Below are positions 3,552-37,021 of a stretch of DNA of 54,428 nucleotides, piece after piece; the stretch's first letter is position 1, and each line of letters begins with the position of its first letter. Made by a program: the position numbers and the translations under genes. Origin of the DNA: a virus (taxonomy: Duplodnaviria; Caudoviricetes); the IMG/VR virus record IMGVR_UViG_3300036944_000521, positions 1-54,428 of that record, one strand, 5' to 3'. The notes beneath the pieces are model-generated. The model saw nothing but the letters and a program-made list of their open reading frames with translations. It was not told the DNA's origin and did not search any database.

Positions 3552-3929
3552 TCATTCAGGCACCTTAATCAGCATACGAAACCCATTAACAATAGCATTA
3601 TGACTATCTGCTGAGCACCACAGAGTCCACTCGCCAATACTATTGTCATGCTTAAAATATCCAATAATAGTAACTAACTCATCGTTCTTATAAACACGCT
3701 CTACGCTAAAGGCCCGCATAGCGCGTAGATCTACCATAGGAGCGCATTTATAGACGGCTTCCTGCTTAGCAGTAAGTATATCTTCTCTAGCGTTCTTCGC
3801 TTCTGTCTGAGCAGTGCTGATAATACTATCAAGCACAGTCTTACGATGTTCTAAGTCACGAACGTGCTGTTCTAGTTTAGAAATATCGTCTTTAAGTTCT
3901 TGTTTACGATGCTTAAGATATGAAAGCAC
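3552..3929 (-). CDS. Hypothetical coiled-coil protein
   Basis: 125 aa with N-terminal heptads. Confidence 0.6.
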   Translation of the reverse strand: MLSYLKHRKQELKDDISKLEQHVRDLEHRKTVLDSIISTAQTEAKNAREDILTAKQEAVYKCAPMVDLRAMRAFSVERVYKNDELVTIIGYFKHDNSIGEWTLWCSADSHNAIVNGFRMLIKVPE

Positions 3930-4335
3930 TTCTAATCTCCATTAAAATTTTACCAAGGTTATTTTGTCCAGTTCCTACAGGAGATTGACCCCAGAAGGTA
4001 TCGCCCCAATAATTACCTTCTACTAGCTCCTCACTACCTGTATCAAGTAGCGCGTCTCGCAGATAATCATCAGAGCTAAACTTAATTATTACAATATCTC
4101 GCATAATGTTTACACGTATATCGTCCCAGCCGTCTCGTAAGATGAGTCGTCTACCATACTGTTTAGCTTTTCCAGGAGTAAGAATAGTAGCTATATATTC
4201 TCTATCTCTAGTATCGTCTGACTTTGCAGCTACAAAAGCGTGCTCACTAGACGGATACGTTATTCCTTCGTAGGTAATGATACAAGGATAAAAGTTAGAT
4301 AGAAAATAGTACTTACCAGTAAAACTAGAAATCAT
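3913..4335 (-). CDS. NADAR (YbiA-like) family protein
   Basis: FLSNFY, SSEHAF, LVEGN-WGD-FWG and GQNNLGKILM motifs. Confidence 0.9.
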   Translation of the reverse strand: MISSFTGKYYFLSNFYPCIITYEGITYPSSEHAFVAAKSDDTRDREYIATILTPGKAKQYGRRLILRDGWDDIRVNIMRDIVIIKFSSDDYLRDALLDTGSEELVEGNYWGDTFWGQSPVGTGQNNLGKILMEIRSAFIS

Positions 4336-4904
4336 TGCAGTTGCTTAATCTTTTCTTTCAGAGCAATCAGCCCTTCACGAGTTACAGGCTTACAAAGGTC
4401 AGCTTTGATCTGATTTACAATACTAGGATGTAGATCCCAATAAGCAATCTCTTCAAGAAGCTGAATGATATATGTAGGAAAACGAGTCTTAACTACCTGA
4501 CCTGGATTACCCACTACAATACTAAATGGTGGTACATCTTTAGCTACAACAGCACGAGAACCAATTACGGACCCGTTACCAATCGTAACTCCAGATAGAA
4601 TTGTTGCTCCAATGCCAATCCAAACATCATTCTCAATAACAATATCACCTTTAGTAGAAGGAGAGCCTGAGAATTGCTCTGCGCCAAAAACTTCTTGACC
4701 CCAATGACCGAACGGATACATACTAGCCCAGTCTGTGCGATGATTGCCTCCTAGCAGCATATGTACCTCAGCAGAGATAGAACAATACTTACCTATGAAA
4801 GCACGACTTCCTTCACCCCAAGCATGATACGTTACACTATCATGGCCATAGGTATATTCTCCTACGGTCACAGTAGTTCCTCTAACTTCGTATATGCGCG
4901 TCAT
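4332..4904 (-). CDS. CatB/Vat-like hexapeptide O-acetyltransferase
   Basis: IGKYCSIS, DVWIG, GVTIGNGSVIG and VVGNPG repeats. Confidence 0.85.
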   Translation of the reverse strand: MTRIYEVRGTTVTVGEYTYGHDSVTYHAWGEGSRAFIGKYCSISAEVHMLLGGNHRTDWASMYPFGHWGQEVFGAEQFSGSPSTKGDIVIENDVWIGIGATILSGVTIGNGSVIGSRAVVAKDVPPFSIVVGNPGQVVKTRFPTYIIQLLEEIAYWDLHPSIVNQIKADLCKPVTREGLIALKEKIKQLQ

Positions 4905-5569
4905 GCAGCAAACTCCAGATTTCCTAGGTCAAAGTCAATATAGTCTAGTTCTCCAATACACTGAAAATGCGTATTGCCTAGTTTCATATGAGTAGTGTGA
5001 TGCCAATGCCCAAAGAACCAGTATTCTGGTTGATGCAAGCGCCACATACGTTGCAGAGCTGAGGCAGTACGATTAGGGTACTCCGTACCTTTTACTAGCC
5101 CAGTACGGAAGAACATTTCGTGCGACGCAGCAGCAGGACAATCATGAGTAATCATCACGCGAGGCTTTACTGCTGCGTACAGGTCTAGAAATACGTCAAA
5201 CTGATTAGCAGTACATTCTTCGCCTTCCCACCAATCTACGTCTTTAGTACGTTTATGCCAGCCAGGAGGTGCGTCAGGATTATCAATGCTCCAAGCTCCT
5301 CCTAGAAACATAGTATGACCTTCTACACGACCATCAGGAATATGTCCGTGCATAGTTTTACATAGCTCAGGATTATCGTGATTACCGCGAATAAACCGGT
5401 GCGTACCATCATTGTGAAGCGCGTCTACAGAAGTGTACCAGTAGGGACTCTGACCGAACCCAATCCCAAAATCTCCGATTTGAATTGTTGGACCATCAAA
5501 GTTTCCAATAGAATAGTTGCGATAGTCATTGAACATTCCGTGAATATCACCAATGAGTCTGGTATACAT
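4901..5569 (-). CDS. Calcineurin-like metallophosphoesterase
   Basis: GDIHG, GDFG, GNHD, TH and GHWH motifs. Confidence 0.85.
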   Translation of the reverse strand: MYTRLIGDIHGMFNDYRNYSIGNFDGPTIQIGDFGIGFGQSPYWYTSVDALHNDGTHRFIRGNHDNPELCKTMHGHIPDGRVEGHTMFLGGAWSIDNPDAPPGWHKRTKDVDWWEGEECTANQFDVFLDLYAAVKPRVMITHDCPAAASHEMFFRTGLVKGTEYPNRTASALQRMWRLHQPEYWFFGHWHHTTHMKLGNTHFQCIGELDYIDFDLGNLEFAA

Positions 5570-5592
5570 AGTTTATCTCCTTATTACTATAT

Positions 5593-5621
5593 ATAGTAAC
5601 ATAAAAAAGGGAGACTAGCAA
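5593..5621 (-). promoter_or_regulatory. Sigma70-like promoter overlapping an upstream terminator hairpin
   Basis: TTGCTA-N17-TACTAT; hairpin GGGAGA..TCTCCC followed by T6. Confidence 0.6.
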
Positions 5622-5980
5622 GGCTAATCTCCCGGTAAGTAGTGCTATGGGTGCAGATTATTGGTCGAAGTAGTCGCCGTTTACCTGATCAGTAATATCT
5701 AGTTCATCCATTAGTTCGTACTGAATTACTGATACAACACGACCAAAACTAGGAATAATTTCAGCTGCATCGTCAGTCCAGTAAATATCACCAGACTTAT
5801 CTACGACTTTAAATACTCGTTCACTCATCTTCAGGATCTTCCTCCAGAGGGATAGCCCAAGCACTTAGACGCTCCATAGCCCACTCCCAAGCTTCGGCTT
5901 CGGCTTCTTCTAGTGATTCAGCTTCAATAATATCAGACTGCTCGTCTCCGGCAAGACCAAAGCTGCAACCAATATGATAC

Positions 5981-6628
5981 TTAGTCATGATTATACTCCT
6001 GTGTTTCAATTCCGTTAGTGGTGATACGAACAGTAATGTGGTCTCCAAATAGCTGTTCTTTGATGCTGTCGTCGATTGCACAGATCATTTCTAACAAAGC
6101 GTCAGTATCTTCTACAAAACCTTGTGGGTATGTGTTATACTCTGCAACTTTAGCTAGTAGATCTTGTTCAGATATGAAGTAAGGTACACAGTTTTCTCGC
6201 TTATTCCACTTACTAAAATAATTACCGCCATAATCAGCTTGAATTTTATCTTTATAAGCTTCTGGATCTACATTAAACTCTGCCCATTTAGCTAGAGCAC
6301 TTTCGTACTCTGCAATGTCATTGCAGTATAAGCTACCTTCATCGTATTTTTCTTCAGCATCGTCAGAGTATAGAACAACATTAGGTTCATGTGAGTAGAA
6401 CTCGCAAGTCTCTCCATCATTAAACCAAGGAGTATACTGGTGCCAAAAGATTTGCTCTACAATGCTACCATGTTTTTCAAAGTACGATTTAGTGGTTTCA
6501 CGTAGAATTTCGCTTGCTGTAGTTTTAGCCTCTGCACGAAGTACGTCGATTTTAGCCATAAGATTGTTATAAGCTGTTAGAAGGTCCGATTTCATTAGTC
6601 TGTCTCCATTCCCTGATGTTTTACCCAA
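5981..6628 (-). CDS. Hypothetical protein (start probably near 6595, MKSDLL)
   Basis: About 204-215 aa ORF with QYTPWFNDGE motif. Confidence 0.65.
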   Translation of the reverse strand: MGKTSGNGDRLMKSDLLTAYNNLMAKIDVLRAEAKTTASEILRETTKSYFEKHGSIVEQIFWHQYTPWFNDGETCEFYSHEPNVVLYSDDAEEKYDEGSLYCNDIAEYESALAKWAEFNVDPEAYKDKIQADYGGNYFSKWNKRENCVPYFISEQDLLAKVAEYNTYPQGFVEDTDALLEMICAIDDSIKEQLFGDHITVRITTNGIETQEYNHD

Positions 6629-6957
6629 GCTGATTGTCCTTTACCTACCATCCACGCTTTTTGTGGTAGGTCTGCTAGCCAGTCGTCAATAGTTGGAATT
6701 TTGCCACAGCAATCTTCCTTAACATGATCTTCTGCAATATCTCGGACTGATATATTTCTTCCGTCTGAATTACAGATTACCACACCAAATAACTGTTCTG
6801 CAAGAAAAATTCCAAACGAGTTGTGTAGGATTGCTCGATGATAGAAATCTGCGCTGGCAGCTTTGGTGCTATCAAACCAGTTATGAATCGGTAGGTAGTC
6901 TTCTACAGTTCCACCATAACGCTTGACACTGTTCTTTGCATGAATATAAGGTTTCAC
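6595..6957 (-). CDS. Conserved His-rich phage protein (putative metal-dependent)
   Basis: HAKNS, IHNWFD, HRAILHNSFG, AEDHVKED. Confidence 0.65.
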   Translation of the reverse strand: MKPYIHAKNSVKRYGGTVEDYLPIHNWFDSTKAASADFYHRAILHNSFGIFLAEQLFGVVICNSDGRNISVRDIAEDHVKEDCCGKIPTIDDWLADLPQKAWMVGKGQSAWVKHQGMETD

Positions 6958-7553
6958 CCTACGATCCTCTGATAAATTTCAGCCCAATTGTTTACACGCC
7001 TATCCCCCGCAGACACGAGCTGGTTATAGCTTTGGTTGACTAGCAGTGAGTTAAGCCCTAAATCAATACCTAGTTGGAAGTTTGTTGGGTGATCTTCAAT
7101 CCACCAGCAATTACTATCTTTATATTGTTTAAGGATAGTAGATTTAGAAATGCTATGATGCAAGCAGGTAATATCAAAAAACATACTACGACCAAAGATG
7201 CGATGTAGGTTTTCAACACGACTCTCAACTACCAGTGGATCGCTACCAATAGAAGTAATTACATGAAATACATACCCATGATGCTCGTGCAGCTTACGCA
7301 TATAACGAATAGCATCACGATAAGGGGGTAGGTTACGAATATACACAGTTTCATTAAACATGGTGCATAAACGATCGCCCTCCTCATGGTCAATGCCATA
7401 GGCTTGAGCAGTTGTATAGGCGCTGTAGTTTGTTTTCTTATAGCCATGTTTAGCCATCCAAATATCAAACATCCATTCCCAGTGAAGAATTACTCCATCA
7501 CAATCAGCAAGAATTAGTTTATCATTTAGCATTAGGGTGCTCCAAAATCTCAT
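6954..7553 (-). CDS. HAD-family phosphatase (T4 gp30.2-like)
   Basis: ILADCDGV, ITS and WIED motifs. Confidence 0.75.
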   Translation of the reverse strand: MRFWSTLMLNDKLILADCDGVILHWEWMFDIWMAKHGYKKTNYSAYTTAQAYGIDHEEGDRLCTMFNETVYIRNLPPYRDAIRYMRKLHEHHGYVFHVITSIGSDPLVVESRVENLHRIFGRSMFFDITCLHHSISKSTILKQYKDSNCWWIEDHPTNFQLGIDLGLNSLLVNQSYNQLVSAGDRRVNNWAEIYQRIVG

Positions 7554-8001
7554 CTAGGGAAATAGGCGTATAGTTACAAGAATCTACCCCAACGTTAAAA
7601 CGACGAGGGGCTGATACTAGATCAGGCTTGTGCGTATGACAGTGAGTATGAATTGCTCCACGGAAGTACCCATTCCATTCTTCGATTGGGTAGTGACACA
7701 TTACAACTGTTCGTTTATTAGCTTTATATTCAAGAATATGCTGACCCCAAATAACGGGGTCGTGATTACCTTGAATTAAGGTGATCTTACCATTAAGACG
7801 CTTAAGAATCTCTACATTATCTTGGCGACCTTTAAAAGCAAAATCTCCGTGATGATATACTAGATCATCTTTGCCTACAGTCTTATTCCAGCGTTCTGTT
7901 AGCTGCTCGTCCATATCTTCTACGCTAGAGAAGGGGCGGTTACACAGCTTTATGATGTTAGCATGGCCGAAGTGTGTACAGCCGGTAAAAAAGATTTTCA
8001 T
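7522..8001 (-). CDS. Metallophosphoesterase
   Basis: THFGH, GDFAF, GNHD, HYP and NVGVD motifs. Confidence 0.85.
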   Translation of the reverse strand: MKIFFTGCTHFGHANIIKLCNRPFSSVEDMDEQLTERWNKTVGKDDLVYHHGDFAFKGRQDNVEILKRLNGKITLIQGNHDPVIWGQHILEYKANKRTVVMCHYPIEEWNGYFRGAIHTHCHTHKPDLVSAPRRFNVGVDSCNYTPISLDEILEHPNAK

Positions 8002-8155
8002 TGATTTAGTACCTCTGCTTCTAGTCTACTGACTTGTTGCTGTAGCTTTTTAATTTCTAGAAAGGCAAGAAGCAGTAGATCATACACTTCTTGCCTAGTT
8101 TCTGTTTCTTGCTCAACTTGAACAAGCGTATCTGCGATTTGATTTACAATATCCA

Positions 8156-8779
8156 TTAGAAAAATGCGTACCCCACACGCTCCATCAGATCACGATCACG
8201 CTTCTTTTCTTCTTCAGTCTTAGGTACAATACCATACTCAATATGCAGCATGGAATCATTATCTACCTGCAACCACTCGCAACCGTCCTTAAAATTCTTC
8301 CAAGTGAGTCCATCGTTGTAGTTGCACTGAATCCATTTACCTTGAGCTTTCCAACTGCACTGATCGTCAGATAGGAAGCTAAGATTAGCATCATCAACTG
8401 CAATAAACCTATCTTCTGGCTTAAGGTTGTCGTAACACCATTCTTGGATTTCATGAATATGTTCAGACGAACGACGCTTTGGGGTTACGCAATCTTCAGC
8501 AAACTCGCCCTCGTATCCGTTATCGCGCATAACCTTTTTGAGGTATGCCTCAGTTTCTTCCCACTTACGAACATGGCGCGCCCAAGAAGTGCTGAACACA
8601 ACCTTAGCATTACCGTGTTTAGCCCAGAGATTGTGCATACGCACAGCTACTGTATCAAAATACGGAATCGCATCTTCACCACGCATAAAAGCTTCTACAG
8701 CCTTTCGATTACTATCGAAAAGGTGCATCTTGCCTGGAAGAAGCGGGCCGTCAAAGTCAACAAAAATATAGTTTGCCAT
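8156..8779 (-). CDS. HAD domain protein of the Swiss-army-knife RNA-repair type
   Basis: FVDFDGPL, VVFSTSW and AVDD motifs. Confidence 0.65.
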   Translation of the reverse strand: MANYIFVDFDGPLLPGKMHLFDSNRKAVEAFMRGEDAIPYFDTVAVRMHNLWAKHGNAKVVFSTSWARHVRKWEETEAYLKKVMRDNGYEGEFAEDCVTPKRRSSEHIHEIQEWCYDNLKPEDRFIAVDDANLSFLSDDQCSWKAQGKWIQCNYNDGLTWKNFKDGCEWLQVDNDSMLHIEYGIVPKTEEEKKRDRDLMERVGYAFF

Positions 8780-9090
8780 TAGGTGTGTTCCACATATTTA
8801 ATACCAGCAGCCTCAATAGCAGAGACACAAACTGGACAGGGTTTAGCATTTTTAGGTTCGCCACGAGCGCCAAAACGAGTGACTACAATTCGATGAGCAC
8901 GTTGCAGCTTACGACAAAGAGAGATTGCATGAATTTCAGCATGAAGAAACTGCTTATCGGGAAGACCTACTATGCAAGCGTGTTTATTTTGCAGAGGGTG
9001 GGTCTTGATATAAGAGTTCTTACCAATACTAAGAACACGACCACGTTTATCATAAATAATTGCCGTCATGTCAAAGCGCGCTCTAGTCAC
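8779..9090 (-). CDS. Zn-dependent deaminase (cytidine/adenosine deaminase superfamily)
   Basis: HAE ... PCPVC catalytic motifs. Confidence 0.8.
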   Translation of the reverse strand: MTRARFDMTAIIYDKRGRVLSIGKNSYIKTHPLQNKHACIVGLPDKQFLHAEIHAISLCRKLQRAHRIVVTRFGARGEPKNAKPCPVCVSAIEAAGIKYVEHT

Positions 9091-9227
9091 TTACTTCTCC
9101 AGTTCTGCGATCTTCTGTTTCACTTTTTCTACCTCAGCTTGACTCTTAACATATAGTTCATGCCAATACTGACTAGAGGGCTTCCAATTTAGATCAGCCA
9201 TACGCTGTACCTTTTCTAAATCATTCA

Positions 9228-9443
9228 TTAGAACACCTCCGCTTGAATTTCACTACGATAACCATCCATAGCTACAAGTACATCGGAGATAGCTACAACA
9301 GCTTCTTCGTAGGTTTTACAGCCACGATAGTGCTCTGCGATATACTCATCGGTCCAGCACTCAGTAAGAATATCCCACCCATCCTCAGTGTAGTGGGTCA
9401 GGGCGTGTTGACGAATACGCTCAATCCAAGTTTTCATTACCAC
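9228..9443 (-). CDS. Hypothetical protein
   Basis: 71 aa ORF. Confidence 0.55.
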   Translation of the reverse strand: MVMKTWIERIRQHALTHYTEDGWDILTECWTDEYIAEHYRGCKTYEEAVVAISDVLVAMDGYRSEIQAEVF

Positions 9444-9634
9444 AACCCCACATCAGTAATTTCAATAGTTCCTAGTAGTTTGGGCTTGAACAAAGTTCCA
9501 TCATAGAAGTCAGCAAAATCCGAAGGGCCAATACCAGACCCGTTATTTTCTGAACGAATAACCACGTGATCCGTCTTAGGATACTCTTGTAGCATTGCGT
9601 ATAGTTGTTTAAGTTGGTCGGCGCTGATTAGCAT
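9437..9634 (-). CDS. Hypothetical protein
   Basis: 65 aa ORF with AGGAG RBS directly after a promoter. Confidence 0.6.
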   Translation of the reverse strand: MLISADQLKQLYAMLQEYPKTDHVVIRSENNGSGIGPSDFADFYDGTLFKPKLLGTIEITDVGLW

Positions 9635-9658
9635 GGCTGTCTCCTTTTTCTATAATTC

Positions 9659-9695
9659 AATATAGCAAAAGAAAAAGCGCCTGGCAAGGCGCTTT
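9659..9695 (-). promoter_or_regulatory. Promoter whose -35 box lies in an intrinsic terminator hairpin
   Basis: TTGCCA-N17-TATATT; hairpin AAAGCGCC TTGCCA GGCGCTTT followed by T-run. Confidence 0.7.
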
Positions 9696-9876
9696 AACGT
9701 TTACGTGGTGTTAGGTCAAAGCCTACTTTCATTTTAGGTCGTCTAATGGCGTAGGGTCTGCCATCAGGGCCAAGTAGCTGCGTTTCTTGAATTTCATCAG
9801 CTTCGTGTACTGTACGAGTTTTTGCCTCGTTCCCGCTGTAGAAGTCATAAGAATCATAGTCCGTATTACTCTTCAT
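9694..9876 (-). CDS. Hypothetical protein
   Basis: 60 aa ORF. Confidence 0.5.
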   Translation of the reverse strand: MKSNTDYDSYDFYSGNEAKTRTVHEADEIQETQLLGPDGRPYAIRRPKMKVGFDLTPRKR

Positions 9877-10288
9877 CTGTTACCACAATTAAAGGGGTTT
9901 TTGTTTTACGAGCAAGGCCTACCATATGTGCAGTACCCCTACCTCCGGGAAAAGCTACAATTAGGTTAGGCTCACTTTCTTCTAGCATCTCTATATTACG
10001 CTCAATTCCAGCACTTTTTCCACCAGACCAATCCGCAGGAAAAGGCATTTCAGTTATATGCTTATTTTTAGCCCAAGTAGAAGCTAAGTTATCTGCTCCT
10101 GCTGCTGCTCCATGAACTATTACTAGATCACTACCTTCTGGTACTTGTATATCCTCTAGTACGCGATGCAAACGATGAACCGCGTGAGTATCCGTTACGA
10201 AACTACTCTGGTGGTCGTCCCATCGTTTTCCGTAGTCGCGACCACCGCATACTAGTACTCTATATTGTGGTTTTTTACTTTGAAACAT
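9866..10288 (-). CDS. SLOG (YspA/DUF2493-like) family protein
   Basis: VLVCGGRDY, HGAAAGAD, AGIERN and FPGGRGTAHM motifs. Confidence 0.8.
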   Translation of the reverse strand: MFQSKKPQYRVLVCGGRDYGKRWDDHQSSFVTDTHAVHRLHRVLEDIQVPEGSDLVIVHGAAAGADNLASTWAKNKHITEMPFPADWSGGKSAGIERNIEMLEESEPNLIVAFPGGRGTAHMVGLARKTKTPLIVVTDEE

Positions 10289-10463
10289 TTTGCGTTGCTA
10301 ATACTAGCTCTAGTTCTGTTTTAATTACAAGTTTTTGCTTTTTCAGATCTTGTAGCGTAACTCTATGCCTGTCTGACCACATATCCTCTTTTTGGCTTTC
10401 AAGAGTGTTAATAGTAGCATCTAACTCACGGTGTTTTTTAGTAAGCCATTCACTTCTAGTCAT
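10275..10463 (-). CDS. Small helical protein (YdcH/DUF465-like)
   Basis: HRELD ... LKKQKLVIKTEL. Confidence 0.5.
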   Translation of the reverse strand: MTRSEWLTKKHRELDATINTLESQKEDMWSDRHRVTLQDLKKQKLVIKTELELVLATQNVSK

Positions 10464-10912
10464 TATGTAACCTTTCGAAGAAGCTCGTAATCGCTTATGC
10501 GTTTACGTAATCCAGAAGAAGAAAACGTATGTTTTCTATTATTGTAATGTATAAGAATATCTTTACTTTCACAGATGCTTTTACCTGTAAAGTTTTTATC
10601 TCTATACTCCTCTCCTATAAATCTAATATTTATAGGGTATGTAAGTAGTATATCTTCTACTTCTCGTTCGTACGTGTAGGGTATAATCTCATCTATGTAT
10701 ATACACCCTTTTAGCTGAACATAACGCTCAAAAACAGACTGAATAGGGCTATTTTTTTCAGGTCGTTCTATAGATGGATCAATCTGCAAGCCGACAATTA
10801 GGTAGTCGCATAGCTCTGAAGCCTCTTTTAACATAGCCACATGACCAGCATGAAACAAATCAAAAGCTGAAAAGGTTATACCTATGCTTTTATTTTTTCT
10901 CTCGTTTTGCAA
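10463..10912 (-). CDS. Glycerol-3-phosphate cytidylyltransferase-like nucleotidyltransferase
   Basis: FDLFHAGH, LIVGL and FSSSGLR motifs. Confidence 0.85.
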   Translation of the reverse strand: MQNERKNKSIGITFSAFDLFHAGHVAMLKEASELCDYLIVGLQIDPSIERPEKNSPIQSVFERYVQLKGCIYIDEIIPYTYEREVEDILLTYPINIRFIGEEYRDKNFTGKSICESKDILIHYNNRKHTFSSSGLRKRISDYELLRKVT

Positions 10913-11084
10913 GATAAACCTTATCCTTCTCTACTGTCCACACAAGTACGTCACCTGGTTCTAAATTAAGTAGCTGAATTATATCGTCTGGTATTGTAAT
11001 AAAATGCTCATCAGAGAACTTATTATACTCTACTCTACTGTGCATGTTATATCTCTCTTGATCATAATAAGGTATATGACTCAT
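10890..11084 (-). CDS. AbrB/MazE-like DNA-binding protein
   Basis: ITIPDDIIQLLNLEPGDVL. Confidence 0.65.
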   Translation of the reverse strand: MSHIPYYDQERYNMHSRVEYNKFSDEHFITIPDDIIQLLNLEPGDVLVWTVEKDKVYLAKREKK

Positions 11085-11109
11085 TGTCTATCTCTCTATA
11101 TCTGCGGTT

Positions 11110-11727
11110 TTATACTTTTAATACTCGTAACGCTTCTGAATAAAGCTTTTTACGATCTTCTAAGCCGTTTGTGCCGCCGTTTATTTTCTTAGTCATAACT
11201 AAAATATCTTGCGTGTCTGCTATAGCATTTAAACCATTTGTTTTCCAGAACCAGCAAGCACTTTCTAGTGCTCCACGCTTAGTTTCTAGATAATCTATAG
11301 TTTCTTGGGCTGTTAGTTGTTTTGTCTTACCAAAAGCTACATAGTTATCAAAACCAGTAAGTTGTATTACTCCACGACCTCTAAATCTCCAACCATCACC
11401 AGAAGCAGTATTACCGTTACCTAGACGATCAGCATAAACTATATTAGCTATCTTCTCCGGCTGTCTAGCGTAAGGAGTGGCATCACGACCTGCTTTAATA
11501 AAGTATTTAGCAAATACCTTATTTAAACCATCGGCACTATAGTTTAAGTTCTCACGCAATACTGTAAACTCAGCAGACTCATGAGAGCACTGAGCAATAA
11601 AACCAGCTATTCTAATAGTTGTATTTATTTCATACTTTGGTAACATTTCTGCTAATAGAGGATACCATTCATCTGGACTCTTCTTAATAAGACTTGCTAC
11701 TTGTGTTTTAGTTATTTTGAAACTCAA
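11110..11727 (-). CDS. Glycoside hydrolase family 19 endolysin
   Basis: AQCSHES, ENLNYS, FRGRGVIQLTG and INGGTNGLEDR motifs. Confidence 0.9.
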   Translation of the reverse strand: MSFKITKTQVASLIKKSPDEWYPLLAEMLPKYEINTTIRIAGFIAQCSHESAEFTVLRENLNYSADGLNKVFAKYFIKAGRDATPYARQPEKIANIVYADRLGNGNTASGDGWRFRGRGVIQLTGFDNYVAFGKTKQLTAQETIDYLETKRGALESACWFWKTNGLNAIADTQDILVMTKKINGGTNGLEDRKKLYSEALRVLKV

Positions 11728-11751
11728 TTATTTCTCTTTTCATGTGAGGAT

Positions 11752-11943
11752 TCAGTCTAGTAATTTATAGTCCTCTACATTAACATCTACTTTAGAATAG
11801 TCTGGGCCTAGTAGGCTACTAGCATTTATAGTTGCTGTAACTTTGCCATTAGTAATATCTATTGGTTTAATAAGAGTAAATACGCAATCTAATATGCGAA
11901 TTTTATTATAACTTCCTCTTATAATTAGTATACGATTTTTCAT
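11752..11943 (-). CDS. Hypothetical protein
   Basis: 63 aa ORF with GAGGA RBS. Confidence 0.55.
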   Translation of the reverse strand: MKNRILIIRGSYNKIRILDCVFTLIKPIDITNGKVTATINASSLLGPDYSKVDVNVEDYKLLD

Positions 11944-12002
11944 TTTATCCTCCTAGCACTTATAGTATCAAACTATAAATGCTAGGTCCAGTAAAAAATG
12001 AA

Positions 12003-12620
12003 TTAGCAAGGGTTGAGTTGGTCCCACCAATGATTTACATCGCTAATATCAGACATATCAACCTCAGACCAAGGATCAGTAACTACAATAGCTCCATCTC
12101 GATAAAGAAAGTTACCTGAGTGCATATCTAGTTTGCGCATACAGCTCATATCATCATCCCAATCAGTCTCGTCGTCTTCGTTACCAAAAACATCAGTCTG
12201 ATCGCTGATCTTATCCAAAAGGTCGGCAAGGTGCTCAGGGTAAGGAAACACGCTAGGTTGCTTTGATGCGTGTTCTAAAAACTCTTCACGAGTAATCCAC
12301 TTCTGGGTGTACTCTTTGCATAGCTCTGCGTTATGGATAGTACTAAAGTTGTCGCCTGCATCAGATAGGCGTTCCATAACGCATACATAATAGCTATTAG
12401 CCTTATCCATGTAGAAGGAGTAGATACGAGGAACACAAGGATTATGTTGATTTTTTTTAATCAGCTCATAGTAGTCAAGCCAAGGATCATTGACATTATT
12501 GCCAATTTTAATAATCTTGTTGCCATCTACCCGAGACGATAGTGCTGCAGCATAGCAACCAGTCCCAATAACTGCGTTACCTTGCTTAGTCATAGACTTA
12601 ATGATATTGTAGGCTGTCAT
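12003..12620 (-). CDS. Protein-kinase-like protein
   Basis: IGTGCY glycine loop, IIK lysine, MERL, DMHSGN catalytic loop, TDP. Confidence 0.7.
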   Translation of the reverse strand: MTAYNIIKSMTKQGNAVIGTGCYAAALSSRVDGNKIIKIGNNVNDPWLDYYELIKKNQHNPCVPRIYSFYMDKANSYYVCVMERLSDAGDNFSTIHNAELCKEYTQKWITREEFLEHASKQPSVFPYPEHLADLLDKISDQTDVFGNEDDETDWDDDMSCMRKLDMHSGNFLYRDGAIVVTDPWSEVDMSDISDVNHWWDQLNPC

Positions 12621-12645
12621 ATCATACTCCTATTTGTATAAGTAT

Positions 12646-12674
12646 AATATAACACGACAGACAGTAAACAGCAA
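12646..12674 (-). promoter_or_regulatory. Sigma70-like promoter
   Basis: TTGCTG-N17-TATATT. Confidence 0.65.
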
Positions 12675-12709
12675 GGCGCAAGTAGATGTAGATAGTACCA
12701 GATAAGCAA

Positions 12710-12741
12710 ATAGGGTGAAGGAAGCTAGCCCTTCACCCTAT
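12710..12741 (-). terminator. Terminator-like hairpin
   Basis: ATAGGGTGAAG..CTTCACCCTAT directly after ORF 12746. Confidence 0.6.
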
Positions 12742-12745
12742 AAAT

Positions 12746-13063
12746 TTAGTTAGCAATGAGACCTAGTAGTCGGGACAGTGCGATCTTAGTTGCACCTTCA
12801 AAACCTTCAGTATCGAACCCATGCGACTCAATATCACGAAGCAGTTCCTTTTTGGAAGGACCATCAGCTTTAGCAGCAGCTCCTTTAGGTGATGCTACAT
12901 ACACACCCTCACGAACTAGCTTGCTACGGATACTGCGTACAGTCTTATCAAAGGCAGTAGCAATATCTTCTAGACCTTCGTTGCCTACATCGGCATACAT
13001 TGCAACAATTTTCTCCAGCATTTCTGGAGTGTAGTTAGCGTTCTTCTCAAGTGCTTCAGCCAT
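12746..13063 (-). CDS. Putative HTH DNA-binding protein (reminiscent of T5-like D3)
   Basis: LEDIATAFDKTVRSIRSKLVREGVY. Confidence 0.5.
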   Translation of the reverse strand: MAEALEKNANYTPEMLEKIVAMYADVGNEGLEDIATAFDKTVRSIRSKLVREGVYVASPKGAAAKADGPSKKELLRDIESHGFDTEGFEGATKIALSRLLGLIAN

Positions 13064-13135
13064 AATTATTCCCCTATTAGCTCTGAAACATGGGTCATAC
13101 TTAGAGAGATAACCCTTTCCTCATTCAGTAAATAC

Positions 13136-13164
13136 AATATAACATGACAAGGAGCACAGAGCAA
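13136..13164 (-). promoter_or_regulatory. Sigma70-like promoter
   Basis: TTGCTC-N17-TATATT. Confidence 0.65.
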
Positions 13165-13194
13165 GCACAAAGTGAATTTGACAATGCAGTAATT

Positions 13195-13377
13195 CTATAT
13201 GCTTTTCCAATAGTGCTGCTCTACATTGAGTCTGCTCTGTAGGTCGTCAACCTTCTTACGTAGTACTTCATTCTCTGATTCTAATGCTTCTACGCGATTG
13301 CGAAGATATATTGCTTCACCTTCACGTACTGCTAGTAAATCTTTAACCGCTTCTCTAGAAAAGTAACCTGGTTCCAT
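13195..13377 (-). CDS. Hypothetical coiled-coil protein
   Basis: 60 aa; AGGAG RBS; TAG stop. Confidence 0.55.
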   Translation of the reverse strand: MEPGYFSREAVKDLLAVREGEAIYLRNRVEALESENEVLRKKVDDLQSRLNVEQHYWKSI

Positions 13378-13387
13378 GATTACTCCT

Positions 13388-13588
13388 TTACTCTATTTGT
13401 GCTAGTCCTGAGCCTGTTGGTGACATTAGGTTTATGCCTAGGTGCCTATTTTGCTTAGAAGCTAGTTCATAAGGACATTTTTCGATATTACACGGAAATA
13501 TAACGGGTTTACCGCCCGTAGAACTCCATAGATTTATAGTACAAACTGGACACTTTCCAGTACATTCGCCGTAGTCTTGCTTAGCCAT
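13388..13588 (-). CDS. Small Cys-rich protein
   Basis: CPVC and CxxxxC motifs. Confidence 0.5.
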   Translation of the reverse strand: MAKQDYGECTGKCPVCTINLWSSTGGKPVIFPCNIEKCPYELASKQNRHLGINLMSPTGSGLAQIE

Positions 13589-13651
13589 GATTTTTCTCTT
13601 TACTTATTATAGGTTATCTAGCGCAGTAGTGCAACCTTTATATTTTTAGTA

Positions 13652-14179
13652 CTATTGAGCAGGTTCTGGTATCTGCTTAATCATACCACCCATAATAGAT
13701 GCTATGTGGATTTGTGAAAATCCTTCTTCTAGTGCAGGCTCGCTATAGGTATCAAGCATAGAATCAAGTACGTACCCAGGAATAATCTTACCTGGACGAG
13801 CACCAAGCCTAGCATATAGTAGGCTCCATTCTCTATCATTACGAGGCGGAGAAATAACAAAACATTGCTTAATGTAGCTATCAGGGAAGTGAGACAAGAT
13901 CCAACGACGCTTATCAGATTTCATATTAGTCTGATCCCAAATAACGGTGTATCCGTTAGCAATAGCTCGCTTTAGCTCATCGTTCATATGCTCAGTAGCT
14001 TCTCGAATATATAGTTCAAAGACTTCTGTGTAGCTTTTGCGATCACGAGCAGCGCAACGTTCGATATAATCATCAGTACTATACGTAAAGATTTTAGATT
14101 TGTTATTCAGCTTAATGTTGTTAATCAGGTATGACTTACCAGAACCAGGTAGCCCTACAAAAACAATTACTGCGCTCAT
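13652..14179 (-). CDS. P-loop kinase (AAA_33 / polynucleotide-kinase-like)
   Basis: VGLPGSGKS, STDD, IWDQTN and EEGF motifs. Confidence 0.8.
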   Translation of the reverse strand: MSAVIVFVGLPGSGKSYLINNIKLNNKSKIFTYSTDDYIERCAARDRKSYTEVFELYIREATEHMNDELKRAIANGYTVIWDQTNMKSDKRRWILSHFPDSYIKQCFVISPPRNDREWSLLYARLGARPGKIIPGYVLDSMLDTYSEPALEEGFSQIHIASIMGGMIKQIPEPAQ

Positions 14180-15093: not shown

Positions 15094-15190
15094 CAGGTTA
15101 GCATTTGTTTGCCCACCATGGGCGTACTACGAGAAAATCGTGGTACAGGGATCGAACCTGTCATGTTTGATTGTTTGCTGAAACTAACCT
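15094..15190 (-). ncRNA. CAGCA-family Y-like RNA 1 (permuted tRNA mimic)
   Basis: AGGTTAG-TTT-CAGCA...CTAACCT-G; payload order T arm ACAGG-TTCGATC-CCTGT, acceptor-like hairpin, D-like hairpin GCCCA/TGGGC. Confidence 0.8.
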
Positions 15191-15201: not shown

Positions 15202-15320
15202 CTGGATCAACTTTTGTGCGTTACCTGCTCTACCGCTGAGCTACTCCCCTAGAGGAGGATGGATTCGAACCACCGACACGGTCCTTTTCATGGATGCTGA
15301 TTGATTGCTGCAATGATCCA
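15202..15320 (-). ncRNA. CAGCA-family Y-like RNA 2 (circularly permuted tRNA-Phe-like)
   Basis: TGGATCA-TTG-CAGCA...TGATCCA-G; loop ATGAAAA, GTGTC, T arm GGTGG-TTCGAAT-CCATC, capped acceptor CTCCT/GGGAG, D arm TAGCTCAGCGGTAGAGC. Confidence 0.85.
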
Positions 15321-15339: not shown

Positions 15340-16758
15340 TTATAGGGCGTAACGATCATTCATAATAGTCTTTAGCATTACGTTATAAGGAGTAAACTCC
15401 TCAAGATCGTTAGCTAGAACCGACTTCATAATAGCTGGAGAGAAACCAGACACATGGCAGATACCGCGATCGTCGAAACGAACAGGAGTACCACCATACG
15501 AGCCATTAACATTCCAGAAGATGATGCGTGGCATTGGATAACCCGCTTGCTCATACTTGCGTGCAATCATTTCTTTAGCACGGTCGTCGAAACGAGCGCA
15601 CTGGTCGAACTGCATATCAGATAGGATCAGAAGTGCTTGTGGCATATCTTCCATCTTAACGCTTCCACGCTTTGCTACGTCTAGTAGATGGTCGAAGGCA
15701 GCATGAAGGTTAGTATTCATACCCCAAGCAGACATCATCATTTGACGCATCTTCTGAGTTAGATCACCTTTTAGGTTTAGGATCTCAGGATTGTCGCTAA
15801 AGGTTAGGAATAGATCCTTGAAGGGACCAGTATTCTTATCAGACAGATACAGACCTAGAGAAACAGCAACCATCATAGGAGAAGGTCCATTACCGTAGTG
15901 ACCAGTGATGCTACCCATAGAGCCGGATACGTCTACCATTGGGAAGATGCGAGCATCACCAACGTAGTTGGGTAGGGCTTTCCATTGCTCGTTAGCAACA
16001 GCAGCATTGCCAAGCCCAACAGACTTAACAACATCATAAGGATATACAGCACCTGCGTTGATCTTAACCTTTGGGTCACGCTCAGCTTCAGGCTTTTGCA
16101 GTTCACGGATATACTTAGAGTAGGCCTCTGAAGCATTGCGACCAAACGCTTTTTGGTAGCGAGCGCTAGCTAGAGAAGGAACGTGTGAGAAGTTAATTGC
16201 ATCCCAGTCCTTAGCACACATTTGAGTCTCAACAACATTAGTAAGACCAACGATAGTCTTACGATACTGCTTAGGAGACATACCAAAGTGGCGAGTTAGT
16301 GCTACAGCGATTGGACCTTTGCGAGGCATCCACTTAGCAGCTAGACCATCTTCAGCGTCTAGAGCAGCACGGATCATATCGTATGCAGCAGTCTTGTTTA
16401 GAGGATCAGCATAAGCAAATAGATCATCCCAACGACCAAGGAAAGGAACCTTGTGCATTAGACGACCAGCAAGAGCAGGGTTAACCTTCTCTAGAGCTGA
16501 TAGCAGAGTACGGAAAGTTTGACGCTCACCAGAACCTGCACGAATATCACGTGCCCACATAAGAACACGGATAGCTAGGTCTTGATCTTCGCCTAGAGCA
16601 GCAAAGAAAGCAGGAGATAGATCTACTCCACGAGCGCTACCGATCTTACCAAAAAGGTCTAGAACAGCAGAAGCAGAAGTAGCGTGCGCCTTCATACCAT
16701 TTTCAGTACGAGCAGGAGCATTAGTGTTGTAGTTTTTCACAGCGTTAGCAAATGACAT
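15340..16758 (-). CDS. Ro60-like TROVE/vWA protein (DUF2828-type)
   Basis: N-terminal TENG, helical region RDIR-G-GER, GRWDD, LAAKWMPR; vWA MIDAS DVSGSM, TNL and SDMQFD. Confidence 0.8.
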   Translation of the reverse strand: MSFANAVKNYNTNAPARTENGMKAHATSASAVLDLFGKIGSARGVDLSPAFFAALGEDQDLAIRVLMWARDIRAGSGERQTFRTLLSALEKVNPALAGRLMHKVPFLGRWDDLFAYADPLNKTAAYDMIRAALDAEDGLAAKWMPRKGPIAVALTRHFGMSPKQYRKTIVGLTNVVETQMCAKDWDAINFSHVPSLASARYQKAFGRNASEAYSKYIRELQKPEAERDPKVKINAGAVYPYDVVKSVGLGNAAVANEQWKALPNYVGDARIFPMVDVSGSMGSITGHYGNGPSPMMVAVSLGLYLSDKNTGPFKDLFLTFSDNPEILNLKGDLTQKMRQMMMSAWGMNTNLHAAFDHLLDVAKRGSVKMEDMPQALLILSDMQFDQCARFDDRAKEMIARKYEQAGYPMPRIIFWNVNGSYGGTPVRFDDRGICHVSGFSPAIMKSVLANDLEEFTPYNVMLKTIMNDRYAL

Positions 16759-16770: not shown

Positions 16771-16857
16771 CTGGTTGGGATTATTTTACGGAATCGAACC
16801 GTTTAAATTTAATTATGAGTTAAATTATTATCCAATAGGGTTTGCTGAAACCAACCA
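16771..16857 (-). ncRNA. CAGCA-family Y-like RNA 3 in the 5' leader of the TROVE gene
   Basis: TGGTTGG-TTT-CAGCA...CCAACCA-G; anticodon arm ATTTAA-CTCATAA-TTAAAT plus T arm ACGG-TTCGATT-CCGT. Confidence 0.8.
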
Positions 16858-18029: not shown

Positions 18030-18103
18030 CAGTATCGCGCCTTGCGGCAGGGTTTCATTACAAGTGAAGTGCTTTTTGAGCGATTTTATGCTGTAACGAT
18101 ACT
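18030..18103 (-). ncRNA. CAGCA-family Y-like RNA 4
   Basis: AGTATCG-TTA-CAGCA...CGATACT-G; anticodon-like arm TTCA-CTTGTAA-TGAA and GNRA hairpin GCC-GCAA-GGC. Confidence 0.75.
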
Positions 18104-18110
18104 AGAATTA

Positions 18111-18267
18111 TAGTAGAAAAAGAACACAAAGCAGTTAATTACTCTGCCAAAGGGGGAGTGTATTTGCAACTACACCGATCCCTACAAACCTACAGGATTC
18201 GAACCTGTGCTTCCCTTAGTAAGGGCTGTCTATCCGCTGACGCTAAGTTTTGTATGTTCTTTTACTA
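18111..18267 (-). ncRNA. tRNA-like RNA with shortened anticodon loop inside a long closing helix
   Basis: TAGTAAAAGAACA / TGTTCTTTTTCTACTA; D arm, CCCTT-ACT-AAGGG, T arm ACAGG-TTCGAAT-CCTGT; no CCA. Confidence 0.6.
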
Positions 18268-19237: not shown

Positions 19238-19298
19238 CAGACTGATTTTTCCCGCTAAGGATTACATTATTAGCGATGTTTGTTGCTGAACTCAGTCT
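19238..19298 (-). ncRNA. CAGCA-family Y-like RNA 5 (minimal)
   Basis: AGACTGA-GTT-CAGCA...TCAGTCT-G; single hairpin CGCTAA/TTAGCG; first element after promoter 19318-19346. Confidence 0.75.
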
Positions 19299-21162: not shown

Positions 21163-21265
21163 ATTATTTAGAAGATATACTAGTAGGACTTGAACCTACA
21201 ATCGTTATTGTCTCGCTTTTTACGGCAACGGCTTTACTTAGCCCATAGTATATCATCAAAATAAT
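21163..21265 (-). ncRNA. TGATGA-stem RNA, copy 1
   Basis: ATTATTT-TGAT-GATATACTA...TAGTATATC-TTCT-AAATAAT enclosing T arm GTAGG-TTCAAGT-CCTAC. Confidence 0.65.
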
Positions 21266-22271: not shown

Positions 22272-22811
22272 CTAGCTCTCTTCAAGTGCTCCTGACCAGT
22301 ATAAGTAGTCTAGCCAAGAGTGGTGTAGTTTTTCTTTAGAACTAACGGAGTTAGCTAGTTCTGAGATACGTGGCTCGCGAGGAGCATTGATTGGAAACAT
22401 ATCTTGACGTGAACCTTTACGGGTATTACAAGATACACAAGCACTTACTATGTTAGTATAGTCAGTTTTTCCGCCTTTAGCACGAGGAATTACATGATCG
22501 AACGTAAGTTCGTGCGATTGAAACTGTTTTCCACAATACTGGCAACAGTACTTGTCACGCAGAAAGATATTCATACGACTGAAAACAATACGTCTAGGCT
22601 TGTTTACATACTGTTTTAGTGCAATAACAGAAGGAGGATTGTATTCAAAAGTTGGAGACCGAAGTGTGACGTCATATTCTTCTAGTACAGTAATACGACC
22701 CTTCATAACATTGCGAAGAGTACGCTCAAAACCCCAAGTGGAAAGCGGGAATACGCTTATAGGGGTAAAGTCTGCATTAAGTACCAGAGCCGGATAATTT
22801 GGCGCTGACAT
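22272..22811 (-). CDS. HNH endonuclease
   Basis: RD..CQYCG, TFDHVIPR..GG and ACVSCN..KG motifs. Confidence 0.9.
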   Translation of the reverse strand: MSAPNYPALVLNADFTPISVFPLSTWGFERTLRNVMKGRITVLEEYDVTLRSPTFEYNPPSVIALKQYVNKPRRIVFSRMNIFLRDKYCCQYCGKQFQSHELTFDHVIPRAKGGKTDYTNIVSACVSCNTRKGSRQDMFPINAPREPRISELANSVSSKEKLHHSWLDYLYWSGALEES

Positions 22812-30729: not shown

Positions 30730-30804
30730 TGGTACCCAGTGACGGGATCGAACCGCCGACAATCTCGGTGTAAACGAGGAGCTCTACCGCTGAGCTAACT
30801 GGGC
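30730..30804 (-). tRNA. tRNA-Val(TAC)
   Basis: Loop TT-TAC-AC; CCA. Confidence 0.95.
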
Positions 30805-30816
30805 ATTGTTATTTAA

Positions 30817-30923
30817 CTGGTTCACTTTTGTGCTAAGTCGGCTGTGCTACCATTACACTACTAGGAGGAATCGAACCTCGCTCGCTGATTGGGATTGCAT
30901 AAAATTGATGCTGAACGGAACCA
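30817..30923 (-). ncRNA. CAGCA-family Y-like RNA 6 (tRNA permuted at the anticodon loop)
   Basis: TGGTTC-C-GTT-CAGCA...GAACCA-G; CCAA-TCAGC, T arm GAGG-TTCGATT-CCTC, D arm GTGT-AATGGTA-GCAC, GCCGA-CTT. Confidence 0.8.
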
Positions 30924-30932
30924 AAATTTATT

Positions 30933-31006
30933 TGGCGAAGGTACTCGGAGTCGAACCGAGGCTTGAGGTTTTGGAGACCGCCGTGCTACCGTAACACTTT
31001 ACCAAC
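30933..31006 (-). tRNA. tRNA-Trp(CCA)
   Basis: Loop CT-CCA-AA; G73; two U-U mismatches in the acceptor stem. Confidence 0.85.
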
Positions 31007-31011
31007 GTAAC

Positions 31012-31374
31012 TTATCCCGCGGAGCGGGTGAGGAAGTTTACTCTAACTTTTGAAGGCTTGAAGTACTTCTCAATAACGTCTTGTGCAATACCAATATCTA
31101 CTGGCTTACACGAAAAAATATCAATATATGCATCACCATTAGAATCTACTAAGTGACCGCTAATATTGCTTGTTTCAATCATTTGACAGAAACTGATACC
31201 AGCTTTATCAGGAGCATGAGTAGCAAAATGCTCAATCATTGGCTCTCCGAAAGCTACCATATCAATAGCAGGAACTAGTTCTTTAATAAAAGCGTGAACA
31301 TTAACTTTGCACATTACAAGTTCTTTGTCACAAGCGCCGCAATCAAACATTGCGTGGTAGCCCCAATATGCCAT
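31012..31374 (-). CDS. speD: S-adenosylmethionine decarboxylase proenzyme
   Basis: GYHAMFD, IETSNISGH and YIDIFSCK motifs. Confidence 0.8.
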   Translation of the reverse strand: MAYWGYHAMFDCGACDKELVMCKVNVHAFIKELVPAIDMVAFGEPMIEHFATHAPDKAGISFCQMIETSNISGHLVDSNGDAYIDIFSCKPVDIGIAQDVIEKYFKPSKVRVNFLTRSAG

Positions 31375-32084: not shown

Positions 32085-32092
32085 GTATAATT

Positions 32093-32172
32093 TGGTGTTC
32101 TCTTTGGATTCGAACCAGTCTAACCTCGCTAGGAGGACGAAACTAACCGTGCGCCATTACAGACTAGAGAAC
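32093..32172 (-). ncRNA. tRNA-like RNA with intact acceptor/T arm and CCA but no anticodon arm
   Basis: GTTCTCT/AGAGAAC-ACCA; TGG-TTCGAAT-CCA; internal CCTC-CTAGC-GAGG. Confidence 0.6.
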
Positions 32173-32179
32173 ATTTATT

Positions 32180-36874: not shown

Positions 36875-36949
36875 TGGTGGTCCTAACAGGAATTGAACCT
36901 GCGTTAGTCTGCTTTAGAGGCAGCTGCCTTACCATTAGGCTATAGAACC
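36875..36949 (-). tRNA. Amber suppressor tRNA (anticodon CTA)
   Basis: Full cloverleaf GGTTCTA/TAGGACC-ACCA; loop CT-CTA-AA. Confidence 0.85.
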
Positions 36950-36958: not shown

Positions 36959-37021
36959 CAGGCTCATCTTGTGCTTTTTCCCAAAAAAAGTGCCTTACGG
37001 CAATGATGCTGAACTGAGCCT
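36959..37021 (-). ncRNA. CAGCA-family Y-like RNA 8
   Basis: AGGCTCA-GTT-CAGCA...TGAGCCT-G; GNRA hairpin TGCC-GTAA-GGCA and CTTTT-TTTGGGA-AAAAG (Pro-type anticodon loop). Confidence 0.8.

Follow-up and report, generated by a model that had tools for sequence, protein, structure and literature searches.

What occupies the gap that a phage transfer RNA (tRNA) array leaves between two of its genes? The question is raised by IMG/VR virus record IMGVR_UViG_3300036944_000521 (Duplodnaviria; Caudoviricetes), which we analyzed whole; "the window" below means all 54,428 bases of this record, which is estimated to be 16% complete and has 39% G+C. A 128-nucleotide (nt) gap on its minus strand is bounded by genes for tRNA-Trp(CCA) (30933..31006) and tRNA-Val(TAC) (30730..30804), both called by ARAGORN and Rfam. 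In it lies RNA 6 (30817..30924, minus strand; 108 nt, including a flanking U and G), 8 nt downstream of the first gene and 12 nt upstream of the second. A preliminary description had taken this element for a Gly-like tRNA opened at its anticodon loop. We found that RNA 6 is a real RNA element, both structured and conserved, whose tRNA core is permuted. We further propose, with a probability of roughly 60%, that it is a Y-RNA-like tRNA mimic with the topology of YrlA, in which the permuted core sits on a handle shared with other RNAs, and that it is probably the partner of a Ro60-like phage protein.

Read 5' to 3' on the minus strand, RNA 6 consists of a handle and a tRNA-like core. The handle comprises a terminal stem of 7 base pairs (bp), a bulge that carries CAGCA(A), and a 3' strand rich in A. 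Its terminal stem, P1, joins UGGUUCC (30917..30923) to UGAACCA (30818..30824, followed by the G at 30817), which in RNA 6 gives 6 bp and a C/U mismatch. The 5' strand runs on into the bulge GUU-CAGCA-UCAA (30905..30916), whose CAGCA (30909-30913) is found family-wide, and then into the U-rich strand of a predicted second helix, P2 (UUUUAUGC, 30897..30904), which faces the A-rich GCACAAAA (30826..30833). The junction AAUCCCAA (30889..30896) holds a conserved NCCAA motif directly 5' of the third helix, P3, which pairs UCAGC (30884..30888, equivalent to tRNA positions 39-43) with GCCGA (30838..30842, positions 27-31). GAGC separates UCAGC from the T arm, GAGG-UUCGAUU-CCUC (30865..30879), which has a 4-bp stem. 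A linker, CUAGUA (30859..30864), whose last two letters are the equivalents of U8 and A9 and which forms no acceptor helix, leads to the D arm, GUGU-AAUGGUA-GCAC (30844..30858). The D arm is followed in order by A, GCCGA, CUUA, GCACAAAA, G, UGAACCA, and G.

The 3' half of the tRNA precedes the 5' half, with the T arm before the D arm, as the preliminary description had stated, and every element that it named is present (CCAA-TCAGC at 30884-30892, T arm GAGG-TTCGATT-CCTC, D arm GTGT-AATGGTA-GCAC, and A-GCCGA-CTT at 30835-30843). The nucleotides that build the elbow of a tRNA have textbook roles, and RNA 6 retains, as read from its sequence, U8, A14, G18, G19, A21, U54, U55, C56, A58, and the G53-C61 pair. 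It has no acceptor stem, CCA end, or closed anticodon loop, and without an acceptor stem and a closed loop it cannot be charged or decode. Neither ARAGORN nor the Rfam tRNA model RF00005 detected RNA 6. An Rfam scan of 141 nt at E ≤ 10 returned only four chance-level matches, to eukaryotic small nucleolar RNA and long noncoding RNA models. Ribozyme classes were considered and rejected, there being no Rfam match to any of them; a 62-amino-acid open reading frame (ORF) on the plus strand (30806-30994) was rejected as protein coding, as it overlaps the tRNA-Trp gene.

Conservation of this architecture was assessed in viral contigs scanned with a pattern consisting of the T loop, 4 to 16 nt, and RTGTAATGGTAGCAC. 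The pattern yielded 24 loci, 19 of which share the RNA 6 architecture (the exceptions are L085, L093, L097, L098, and L100). Sixteen distinct sequences, RNA 6 and 15 orthologues from different viral contigs, were aligned (alignment A3), and P1, P3, the T stem, and the D stem were tested. Standard pairs filled 95.8% of the pair cells in these four helices, and double-sided changes occurred in 11 of the 20 pairs. None of 500 shuffled alignments reached the observed value on any of five measures, and pairing fell to 29 to 40% when the partner strands were slid by 1 to 3 columns. Five of the seven P1 pairs covary in the orthologues, while the T stem is 100% paired with covariation at two of four pairs. 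For P3, absence of the pairing of GCCGA with TCAGC in probing or homologues had been set beforehand as what would refute the preliminary description. The pairing stood up to this check in the homologues: P3 is 85% paired over the 16 sequences, with compensatory changes at four of five pairs. Its two central pairs are often mismatched (7/16 and 5/16), and RNA 6 has A.C there. P2 forms in constrained folds of most orthologues, in a region where the alignment is gappy. In one orthologue, L102, the unconstrained minimum free energy (MFE) fold reproduces the whole model structure. The covariance model R1, of which RNA 6 is a training sequence, gives RNA 6 a score of 97.6 bits.

The orthologues fill tRNA slots, lying on the same strand as their neighbors and 4 to 10 nt from them in orthologous arrays. 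Two elements stand apart from this set. L100, from a record (G008) that is 100% complete and has 37 tRNAs and no DUF7788 gene, places a T arm before the RNA 6 D arm with no handle around them; it is a handle-less form of the mimic. A paralogue in record G002 (68535-68649, minus strand) has the same GTGTAATGGTAGCAC D arm as RNA 6 and carries an acceptor-like hairpin, CAGA...TCTG, between its T and D arms, which suggests that the RNA 6 type lost this hairpin.

The orthologues also allowed the tRNA origin of the core to be examined. The T-to-D linker, in which the preliminary description saw an acceptor stem reduced to CTAG, varies among them (CTAGTA, CTTGTG, TTTATA, GTTCTG, CTAAACTA, and others); it is 5 to 8 nt long and has no conserved pairing, and only its last two letters, equivalent to U8 and A9, are fairly constant. 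The CTAG segment is not a stem remnant. Rejoining the two halves of RNA 6 was said to give an anticodon loop CTTCCAA, and one side of this loop held up: NCCAA directly 5' of P3 is conserved in most orthologues (TCCAA or GCCAA; CCCAA in the window), and its sequence would fit a Gly-type anticodon followed by A37 and A38 or, shifted by one, the CCA-AA of tRNA-Trp. The CTT on the 3' side is not conserved, the orthologues having CAAAAG, CCAAAG, AAAAAG, and others.

Assignment to tRNA-Gly was not supported. Rejoined as previously proposed and compared with the distinct sequences among 803 phage tRNA predictions, RNA 6 scored 58 with a tRNA-Trp, 56 with two tRNA-Gly(TCC), and 54 with a tRNA-Gln. Across the 16 aligned sequences, Trp(CCA) was the best match for 15, with a mean score of 51.8 versus 41.4 for Gly(TCC), and Gly fell outside the top five for either half when the loop letters were left out. 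Many isotypes have the D loop TAATGGTA, with Gly(TCC) having it most often (7/19). As to the opening at the anticodon loop, the ends of the core do exit at the anticodon-stem position, but P3 continues through P2 into a sealed 7-bp terminal stem. RNA 6 has no free ends at the anticodon position, mimicry of an anticodon-cleaved tRNA is not supported, and the topology is that of the YrlA-type Y RNAs.

RNA 6 is one member of a family. A search for a 7-nt stem strand, 3 nt, CAGCA, and a later complementary strand identified seven handle RNAs in the window, all on the minus (coding) strand and in one register. RNA 1 (15095..15190) contains a T arm, a hairpin, and a D-like hairpin, and RNA 2 (15203..15320) is YrlA-like, with a T arm, an acceptor-like hairpin, and a D arm; the RNA 6 covariance model gave them 30.4 and 32.3 bits, respectively. 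RNA 3 (16772..16857) has a T arm only, RNA 4 lies at 18031..18103, RNA 5 (19239..19298) has a single-hairpin payload, RNA 6 was recovered by this search at 30818-30923, and RNA 7 (36960..37021) has two small hairpins and the 3' strand GCACAAGA. RNA 2 aligned end to end with the Rfam YrlA model, RF02553, at 41.4 bits and an E value of 3e-8 (201-nt scan), below the gathering score of 69. In addition, RNA 2 carries CAGCA twice (GCAGCAATCAATCAGCATC), which would permit two mutually exclusive terminal stems, UGGAUCA/UGAUCCA or AUCAGC/GUUGAU.

Including relatives, the family consensus is AGGAU-NN-KUW-CAGCAA ... A-run ... NN-AUCCU-G. Within this handle the relatives hold YrlA-like T-hairpin-D cores, cores in the normal order of D, anticodon, and T arms (one of which, L002:3801-3872, scores 52.9 bits as a tRNA), bare anticodon stem-loops, GUUUCGA hairpins, and simple hairpins. 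An Rfam scan of 13 related loci at gathering scores gave 181 matches, and the best 150 of these, the ones listed, were all tRNA. Among the relatives, L005:923-984, L011:508-570, L066:3057-3114, L075:2300-2357, and others have an anticodon stem-loop as their sole payload; these resemble tRNA-Lys(UUU) (loop CTTTTAA) or tRNA-Thr(UGU) (loop CTTGTAA), like displayed anticodon arms. A search of the literature outside subscription journals turned up neither the CAGCA handle nor handle RNAs whose tRNA parts can be exchanged.

The preliminary description had also proposed that different tRNAs were captured independently into one carrier, citing a linker, CACAAAAGT, common to RNA 6 and RNA 2. Most of this linker is the P2 3' strand. 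Exact copies at 30824-30832 and 15210-15218 on the minus strand do occupy the same structural place, although the word by itself is weak evidence: it had 18 matches with at most one mismatch versus 17.3 expected, including a third exact copy at 3511 on the plus strand. The idea of a common carrier was supported: the seven RNAs of the window and hundreds of RNAs in relatives have one handle around differing payloads. The D halves of RNA 2 and RNA 6 scored 14 against each other, whereas their scores with real tRNAs, which belong to different isotypes, were 40 and 34. Independent capture of tRNA inserts is plausible, and the handle RNAs may alternatively have diverged from one ancestor under tRNA-like constraints.

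Three of the handle RNAs (RNAs 1 to 3) flank a gene encoding a 472-amino-acid protein (15340..16758, minus strand). We took 80 viral loci around the relatives of this protein and applied a strict handle filter; 76 of them had at least one handle RNA on the strand of the gene. The gene strand held 239 handle matches, compared with 27 for the opposite strand and 16.8 for shuffled sequences, and most were just upstream of the gene. A covariance model of the RNA 6 orthologues, searched against the window and the 80 loci, gave 75 matches at E ≤ 0.01, every one of them on the gene strand and RNAs 1 and 2 included. The closest RNA 6 orthologues, L094 and L103, are directly upstream of the copies of the gene in their contigs. 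Among six handle-bearing records that were checked, three encode the protein, including those of L094 and L103 and the sole record of the six whose completeness reaches 90%. Four further records lacking the gene comprised that of L087, which has a degenerate handle and is 72% complete, and three without handles, one of them 100% complete. Full scans of one record of each kind serve as an illustration, not as a statistic: in a 96%-complete record with the gene, six genuine handle RNAs lay no more than 8 kb away from the gene, and a 100%-complete record without the gene and with 37 tRNAs had only chance-level handle matches.

Pfam assigned the 472-amino-acid ORF to DUF2828 and DUF7788 (PF11443/PF25043). 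Of 8,000 candidate relatives that were scored, 7,994 matched at E ≤ 1e-5, and all of the best 120, the ones listed, have both domains; at E ≤ 0.001 the family comprises 6,202 clusters at 50% identity. An AlphaFold2 model based on a 47-sequence alignment had a mean predicted local distance difference test score of 90.5 and a predicted template modeling score of 0.89. It shows a helical ring and a vWA domain, a predicted Ro60-like fold. When the model was compared to the PDB with Foldseek, the top 13 matches, which are all of those with E ≤ 0.001, were without exception Ro60/TROVE chains. The best was Xenopus Ro60 (2i91_A; E 9e-8, TMq 0.66, 550 aligned columns), and other top matches were Deinococcus radiodurans Rsr, the Ro60 of Thermus phage phiLo (9kop, 9l5y), and human Ro60. 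Isolated vWA domains came next, from E 1e-3 upward. At the sequence level the signal was weak: a profile search of PDB sequences ranked four Ro60/TROVE proteins first, at E values of 0.055 to 0.2 and in the metal ion-dependent adhesion site region of the vWA domain, and phmmer with the 472-amino-acid protein found only a weak vWA match among PDB sequences. We therefore refer to it as a predicted Ro60-fold protein and not as an established Ro60 orthologue. No description of DUF2828/DUF7788 as a Ro60-fold family was found in the literature outside subscription journals.

Handle RNAs cluster in a strand-specific manner beside the gene for this predicted Ro60-fold protein and are placed within tRNA operons. 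RNA 6 would be made within the phage tRNA transcript and probably freed by the nucleases that trim the neighboring tRNAs. The handle is the proposed binding site for the DUF2828/DUF7788 protein, as structural homology, gene linkage, and the analogy with Ro60 and Y RNA suggest. The second module, consisting of P3, a short variable region, the T arm, the 6-nt linker, and the D arm, would present the permuted tRNA core as a tRNA-shaped face on a Ro-like particle. Such a face would most likely serve as an adaptor or gate, by analogy with Ro60 and YrlA, and it could recruit a factor that binds the tRNA elbow or compete with tRNAs. tRNA surveillance, tRNA repair, or defense against host tRNA-cleaving systems would be a suitable setting for a role as adaptor, gate, or decoy. 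A broader proposal is offered only tentatively, and we hold it to be doubtful: DUF2828/DUF7788 may be a large, unrecognized branch of Ro60 in phage tRNA arrays, served by interchangeable handle RNAs that show parts of tRNAs (elbows, whole cores, or bare anticodon stem-loops), the whole being a programmable particle that senses, decoys, or repairs tRNAs attacked by host defense nucleases.

Several observations weigh against the proposal that RNA 6 is a Y-RNA-like partner of this protein. Three of the six handle-bearing records show no DUF2828/DUF7788 gene, and these three are 34 to 39% complete. RNA 6 shares a strand with the Ro-like gene but is separated from it by 14 kb, and since the gene and the RNAs both live in tRNA arrays, part of the linkage could reflect a shared neighborhood. 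The Pfam TROVE model matches nothing in the window. The YrlA motif GNCGAAN0-1G is absent from RNA 6, the family having KUW-CAGCAA, and RF02553 (gathering threshold, 69 bits) gives no match to RNA 6 at E ≤ 10. As to the structure, the D stem is invariant in alignment A3 because the search pattern demanded the D arm; RNAalifold alone recovers P1 and the T and D stems and does not recover P3; single-sequence folding of RNA 6 is no better than that of shuffled sequences (MFE z-score, -0.38); and the homology-based structure has an energy of -13.7 kcal/mol versus -20.8 kcal/mol for the MFE fold. Expression, finally, rests on assembled contigs from RNA libraries, which may contain DNA and which show no ends, strand, or true transcription: a 331-nt contig from run X21 covers 30801-31131 and departs from the window at 13 positions and by 2 gaps, and a contig from run X19 carries an RNA-6-type orthologue.

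Four other explanations were weighed. The nearest surviving form of the damaged-tRNA idea is a free-standing decoy or sensor that works without a Ro-like protein, its tRNA-shaped core and NCCAA soaking up or reporting a host tRNA-targeting nuclease or tRNA-binding enzyme. The conservation of NCCAA 5' of P3 in most orthologues would be expected of such an RNA, and the bare Lys(UUU)- or Thr(UGU)-like stem-loops on handle RNAs of relatives (L005:923-984, L066:3057-3114) and the RNA-repair-type genes of the window (HAD_SAK_2, NADAR, YAcAr, and an AAA_33 kinase) are in keeping with it. However, this explanation does not account for the retention of one handle (AGGAU..CAGCAA..AUCCU) across payloads, on the gene strand and beside a Ro-like gene. 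The variable CTT side of the supposed loop and the absence of free ends at the anticodon position also speak against it, and we consider it unlikely.

We regard as quite unlikely that RNA 6 merely serves the processing or stability of the tRNA operon, as a structured spacer with no independent life in which the elbow and the terminal stem direct or pace the cutting of adjacent tRNAs by ribonuclease (RNase) P, RNase E, or RNase Z. RNase P recognizes the elbow formed by the T and D loops, and RNA 6 keeps this elbow; moreover, RNAs of its type sit in a tRNA slot, 4 to 12 nt from their neighbors, in many arrays. A spacer of this kind is hard to reconcile with handle RNAs that have non-tRNA payloads, with their concentration upstream of a single protein gene in place of an even spread over the arrays, and with a complete phage that has 37 tRNAs and no handle RNA. 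It is very improbable that RNA 6 is a decayed or rearranged tRNA gene, mere recombination debris without function: the lack of a tRNA finder call and of an acceptor stem and the mismatches in P1, P2, and P3 of RNA 6 could be read in this way, but the architecture is kept, with compensatory changes, in 15 other distinct sequences on different contigs. It is barely credible that RNA 6 is a circularly permuted tRNA gene in the true sense, giving a transcript that is circularized and recut to a working tRNA-Gly or tRNA-Trp, despite the 3' half coming first and the NCC or CCA triplet and AA at the anticodon place, as no acceptor stem is possible with a variable, unpaired T-D linker of 5 to 8 nt, the CTT half of the rejoined loop is not conserved, and the array already has a tRNA-Trp and two tRNA-Gly genes.

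If the link between the handle RNAs and the DUF2828/DUF7788 protein holds, it provides a concrete hypothesis for a large family of unknown function, accounts for unannotated gaps in many phage tRNA clusters, and makes the natural payload swaps usable for probing what the tRNA-like module recognizes. The Y-RNA architecture would occur here with a different conserved handle, and with a likely partner family that is filed under domains of unknown function.

The window around RNA 6 has 81 of its 95 selected ORFs on the minus strand. All 30 tRNA genes called by ARAGORN, 26 of which Rfam confirmed at its gathering score, are on that strand between 19.3 and 40.2 kb; tRNA-Tyr is not among them. One of these tRNAs, at 21174-21252, is of undetermined type and has an irregular anticodon loop; another, at 36875-36949, has the anticodon CTA (labeled Pyl) and is a possible amber suppressor. 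An HNH endonuclease gene (22272-22811, minus strand) lies within the array. Between the tRNA-Met and tRNA-Leu genes is an unannotated tRNA-like element (32085-32179, minus strand) that tRNA finders did not call, in which a terminal stem of 7 to 8 bp (GTTCTCT/AGAGAAC) has ACCA after it; the element also contains the T arm TGG-TTCGAAT-CCA and an additional long hairpin. A second unannotated element (18140-18262, minus strand) adjoins handle RNA 4; its T arm, CAGG-TTCGAAT-CCTG, is canonical, its anticodon arm is odd, and AAACTTA/TAGGTTT may form an acceptor pairing of 7 bp. Pfam matches in the window include alternative oxidase, AdoMet decarboxylase, ferritin, and Hsp20 domains, which we take to be auxiliary genes typical of cyanophages, and RNA-repair- or nicotinamide adenine dinucleotide (NAD)-related domains (HAD_SAK_2, NADAR, YAcAr, AAA_33 kinase, and a PP-loop enzyme). 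Upstream of the RNA island, at 2171-14179 on the minus strand, is a cluster of NAD- and RNA-repair-type domains: nucleoside deoxyribosyltransferase-like, NADAR, HAD_SAK_2, YAcAr SLOG, cytidylyltransferase-like, and AAA_33 kinase. The record, 16% complete, showed no RNA ligase.

Among known systems, permuted tRNA genes occur in the red alga Cyanidioschyzon merolae; these retain a complete acceptor stem and give working tRNAs after circularization. RNA 6 resembles them in that its 3' half comes before its 5' half, and it differs in having a linker that is too short and unpaired, no acceptor strands, and no working tRNA as its product. With the phage tRNA-Trp(CCA) and tRNA-Gly(UCC) it shares the D arm GUGU-..GGUA-GCAC and the T loop UUCGAUU. 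In the window, the tRNA-Trp has the D stem of RNA 6 and the tRNA-Gly(TCC) has its D loop, and the anticodon loops of these tRNAs end, on the 3' side, in a sequence similar to NCCAA. In contrast to these tRNAs, RNA 6 is permuted and lacks an acceptor stem, a CCA end, and a closed anticodon loop.

Y RNAs and Ro60 are known from animals, some 5% of bacteria, and a small number of phages (PMC4201824), the last including mycobacteriophages, CcrColossus, Bacillus phage G, and Thermus phage phiLo (PMC4201824, PMC12135203, PMC7824862). In the stem of a Y RNA, Ro60 makes contact with a motif that is conserved on the 5' strand (PMC4201824; PMC12135203). The broad features of a Y RNA are present here, namely, a length of 80 to 130 nt (RNA 6, 108 nt), a terminal stem, a conserved CAGCA bulge, and a predicted Ro60-fold protein in the genome. 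In phiLo, too, a phage Ro60-fold protein (phiRo60) is accompanied by Y-like RNAs, Yrl1 and Yrl2, upstream of its gene; unlike ours, with CAGCA and a tRNA core, these were selected for having CGAA within a large bulge, and the available portion of the report does not describe them as tRNA mimics (PMC12135203).

The closest relative in design is YrlA (RF02553; Chen et al. 2014, PMC4201824). YrlA (Y RNA-like A) is a Y RNA of bacteria that mycobacteriophages have as well; its effector module is a tRNA that begins with the T arm, continues with a closed acceptor-like hairpin, and ends with the D arm (PMC4201824). The preliminary description had given RNA 6 just this topology. Likewise, the ends of RNA 6 pair in a terminal stem with a conserved 5'-strand motif nearby, its T arm is 5' of its D arm, its core strands leave through the anticodon-stem position, and these helices covary. 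The handle family, like YrlA, is on the same strand as a Ro60-fold gene and usually beside it, with several differing copies per locus. A position within about 4 kb of a same-strand Ro60 (TROVE) gene is a feature of YrlA; RNA 6 has its Ro60-fold gene on the same strand at a distance of 14 kb and is dispersed in a tRNA array, and its orthologues in L094 and L103 are immediately upstream of theirs. The putative partner of RNA 6 is a DUF2828/DUF7788 protein that Pfam TROVE misses, and the payload of its family is interchangeable. RNA 6 further differs from YrlA in its 4-bp T stem, its variable region of 3 to 4 nt, and its 6-nt linker, CUAGUA, in place of the acceptor-like hairpin, which RNA 2 of the window does have. 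Three features thus tested set RNA 6 apart from YrlA, in that it lacks both the GNCGAA motif and an acceptor-like hairpin and does not reach the Rfam score, and it shares with YrlA both its topology and its genomic logic.

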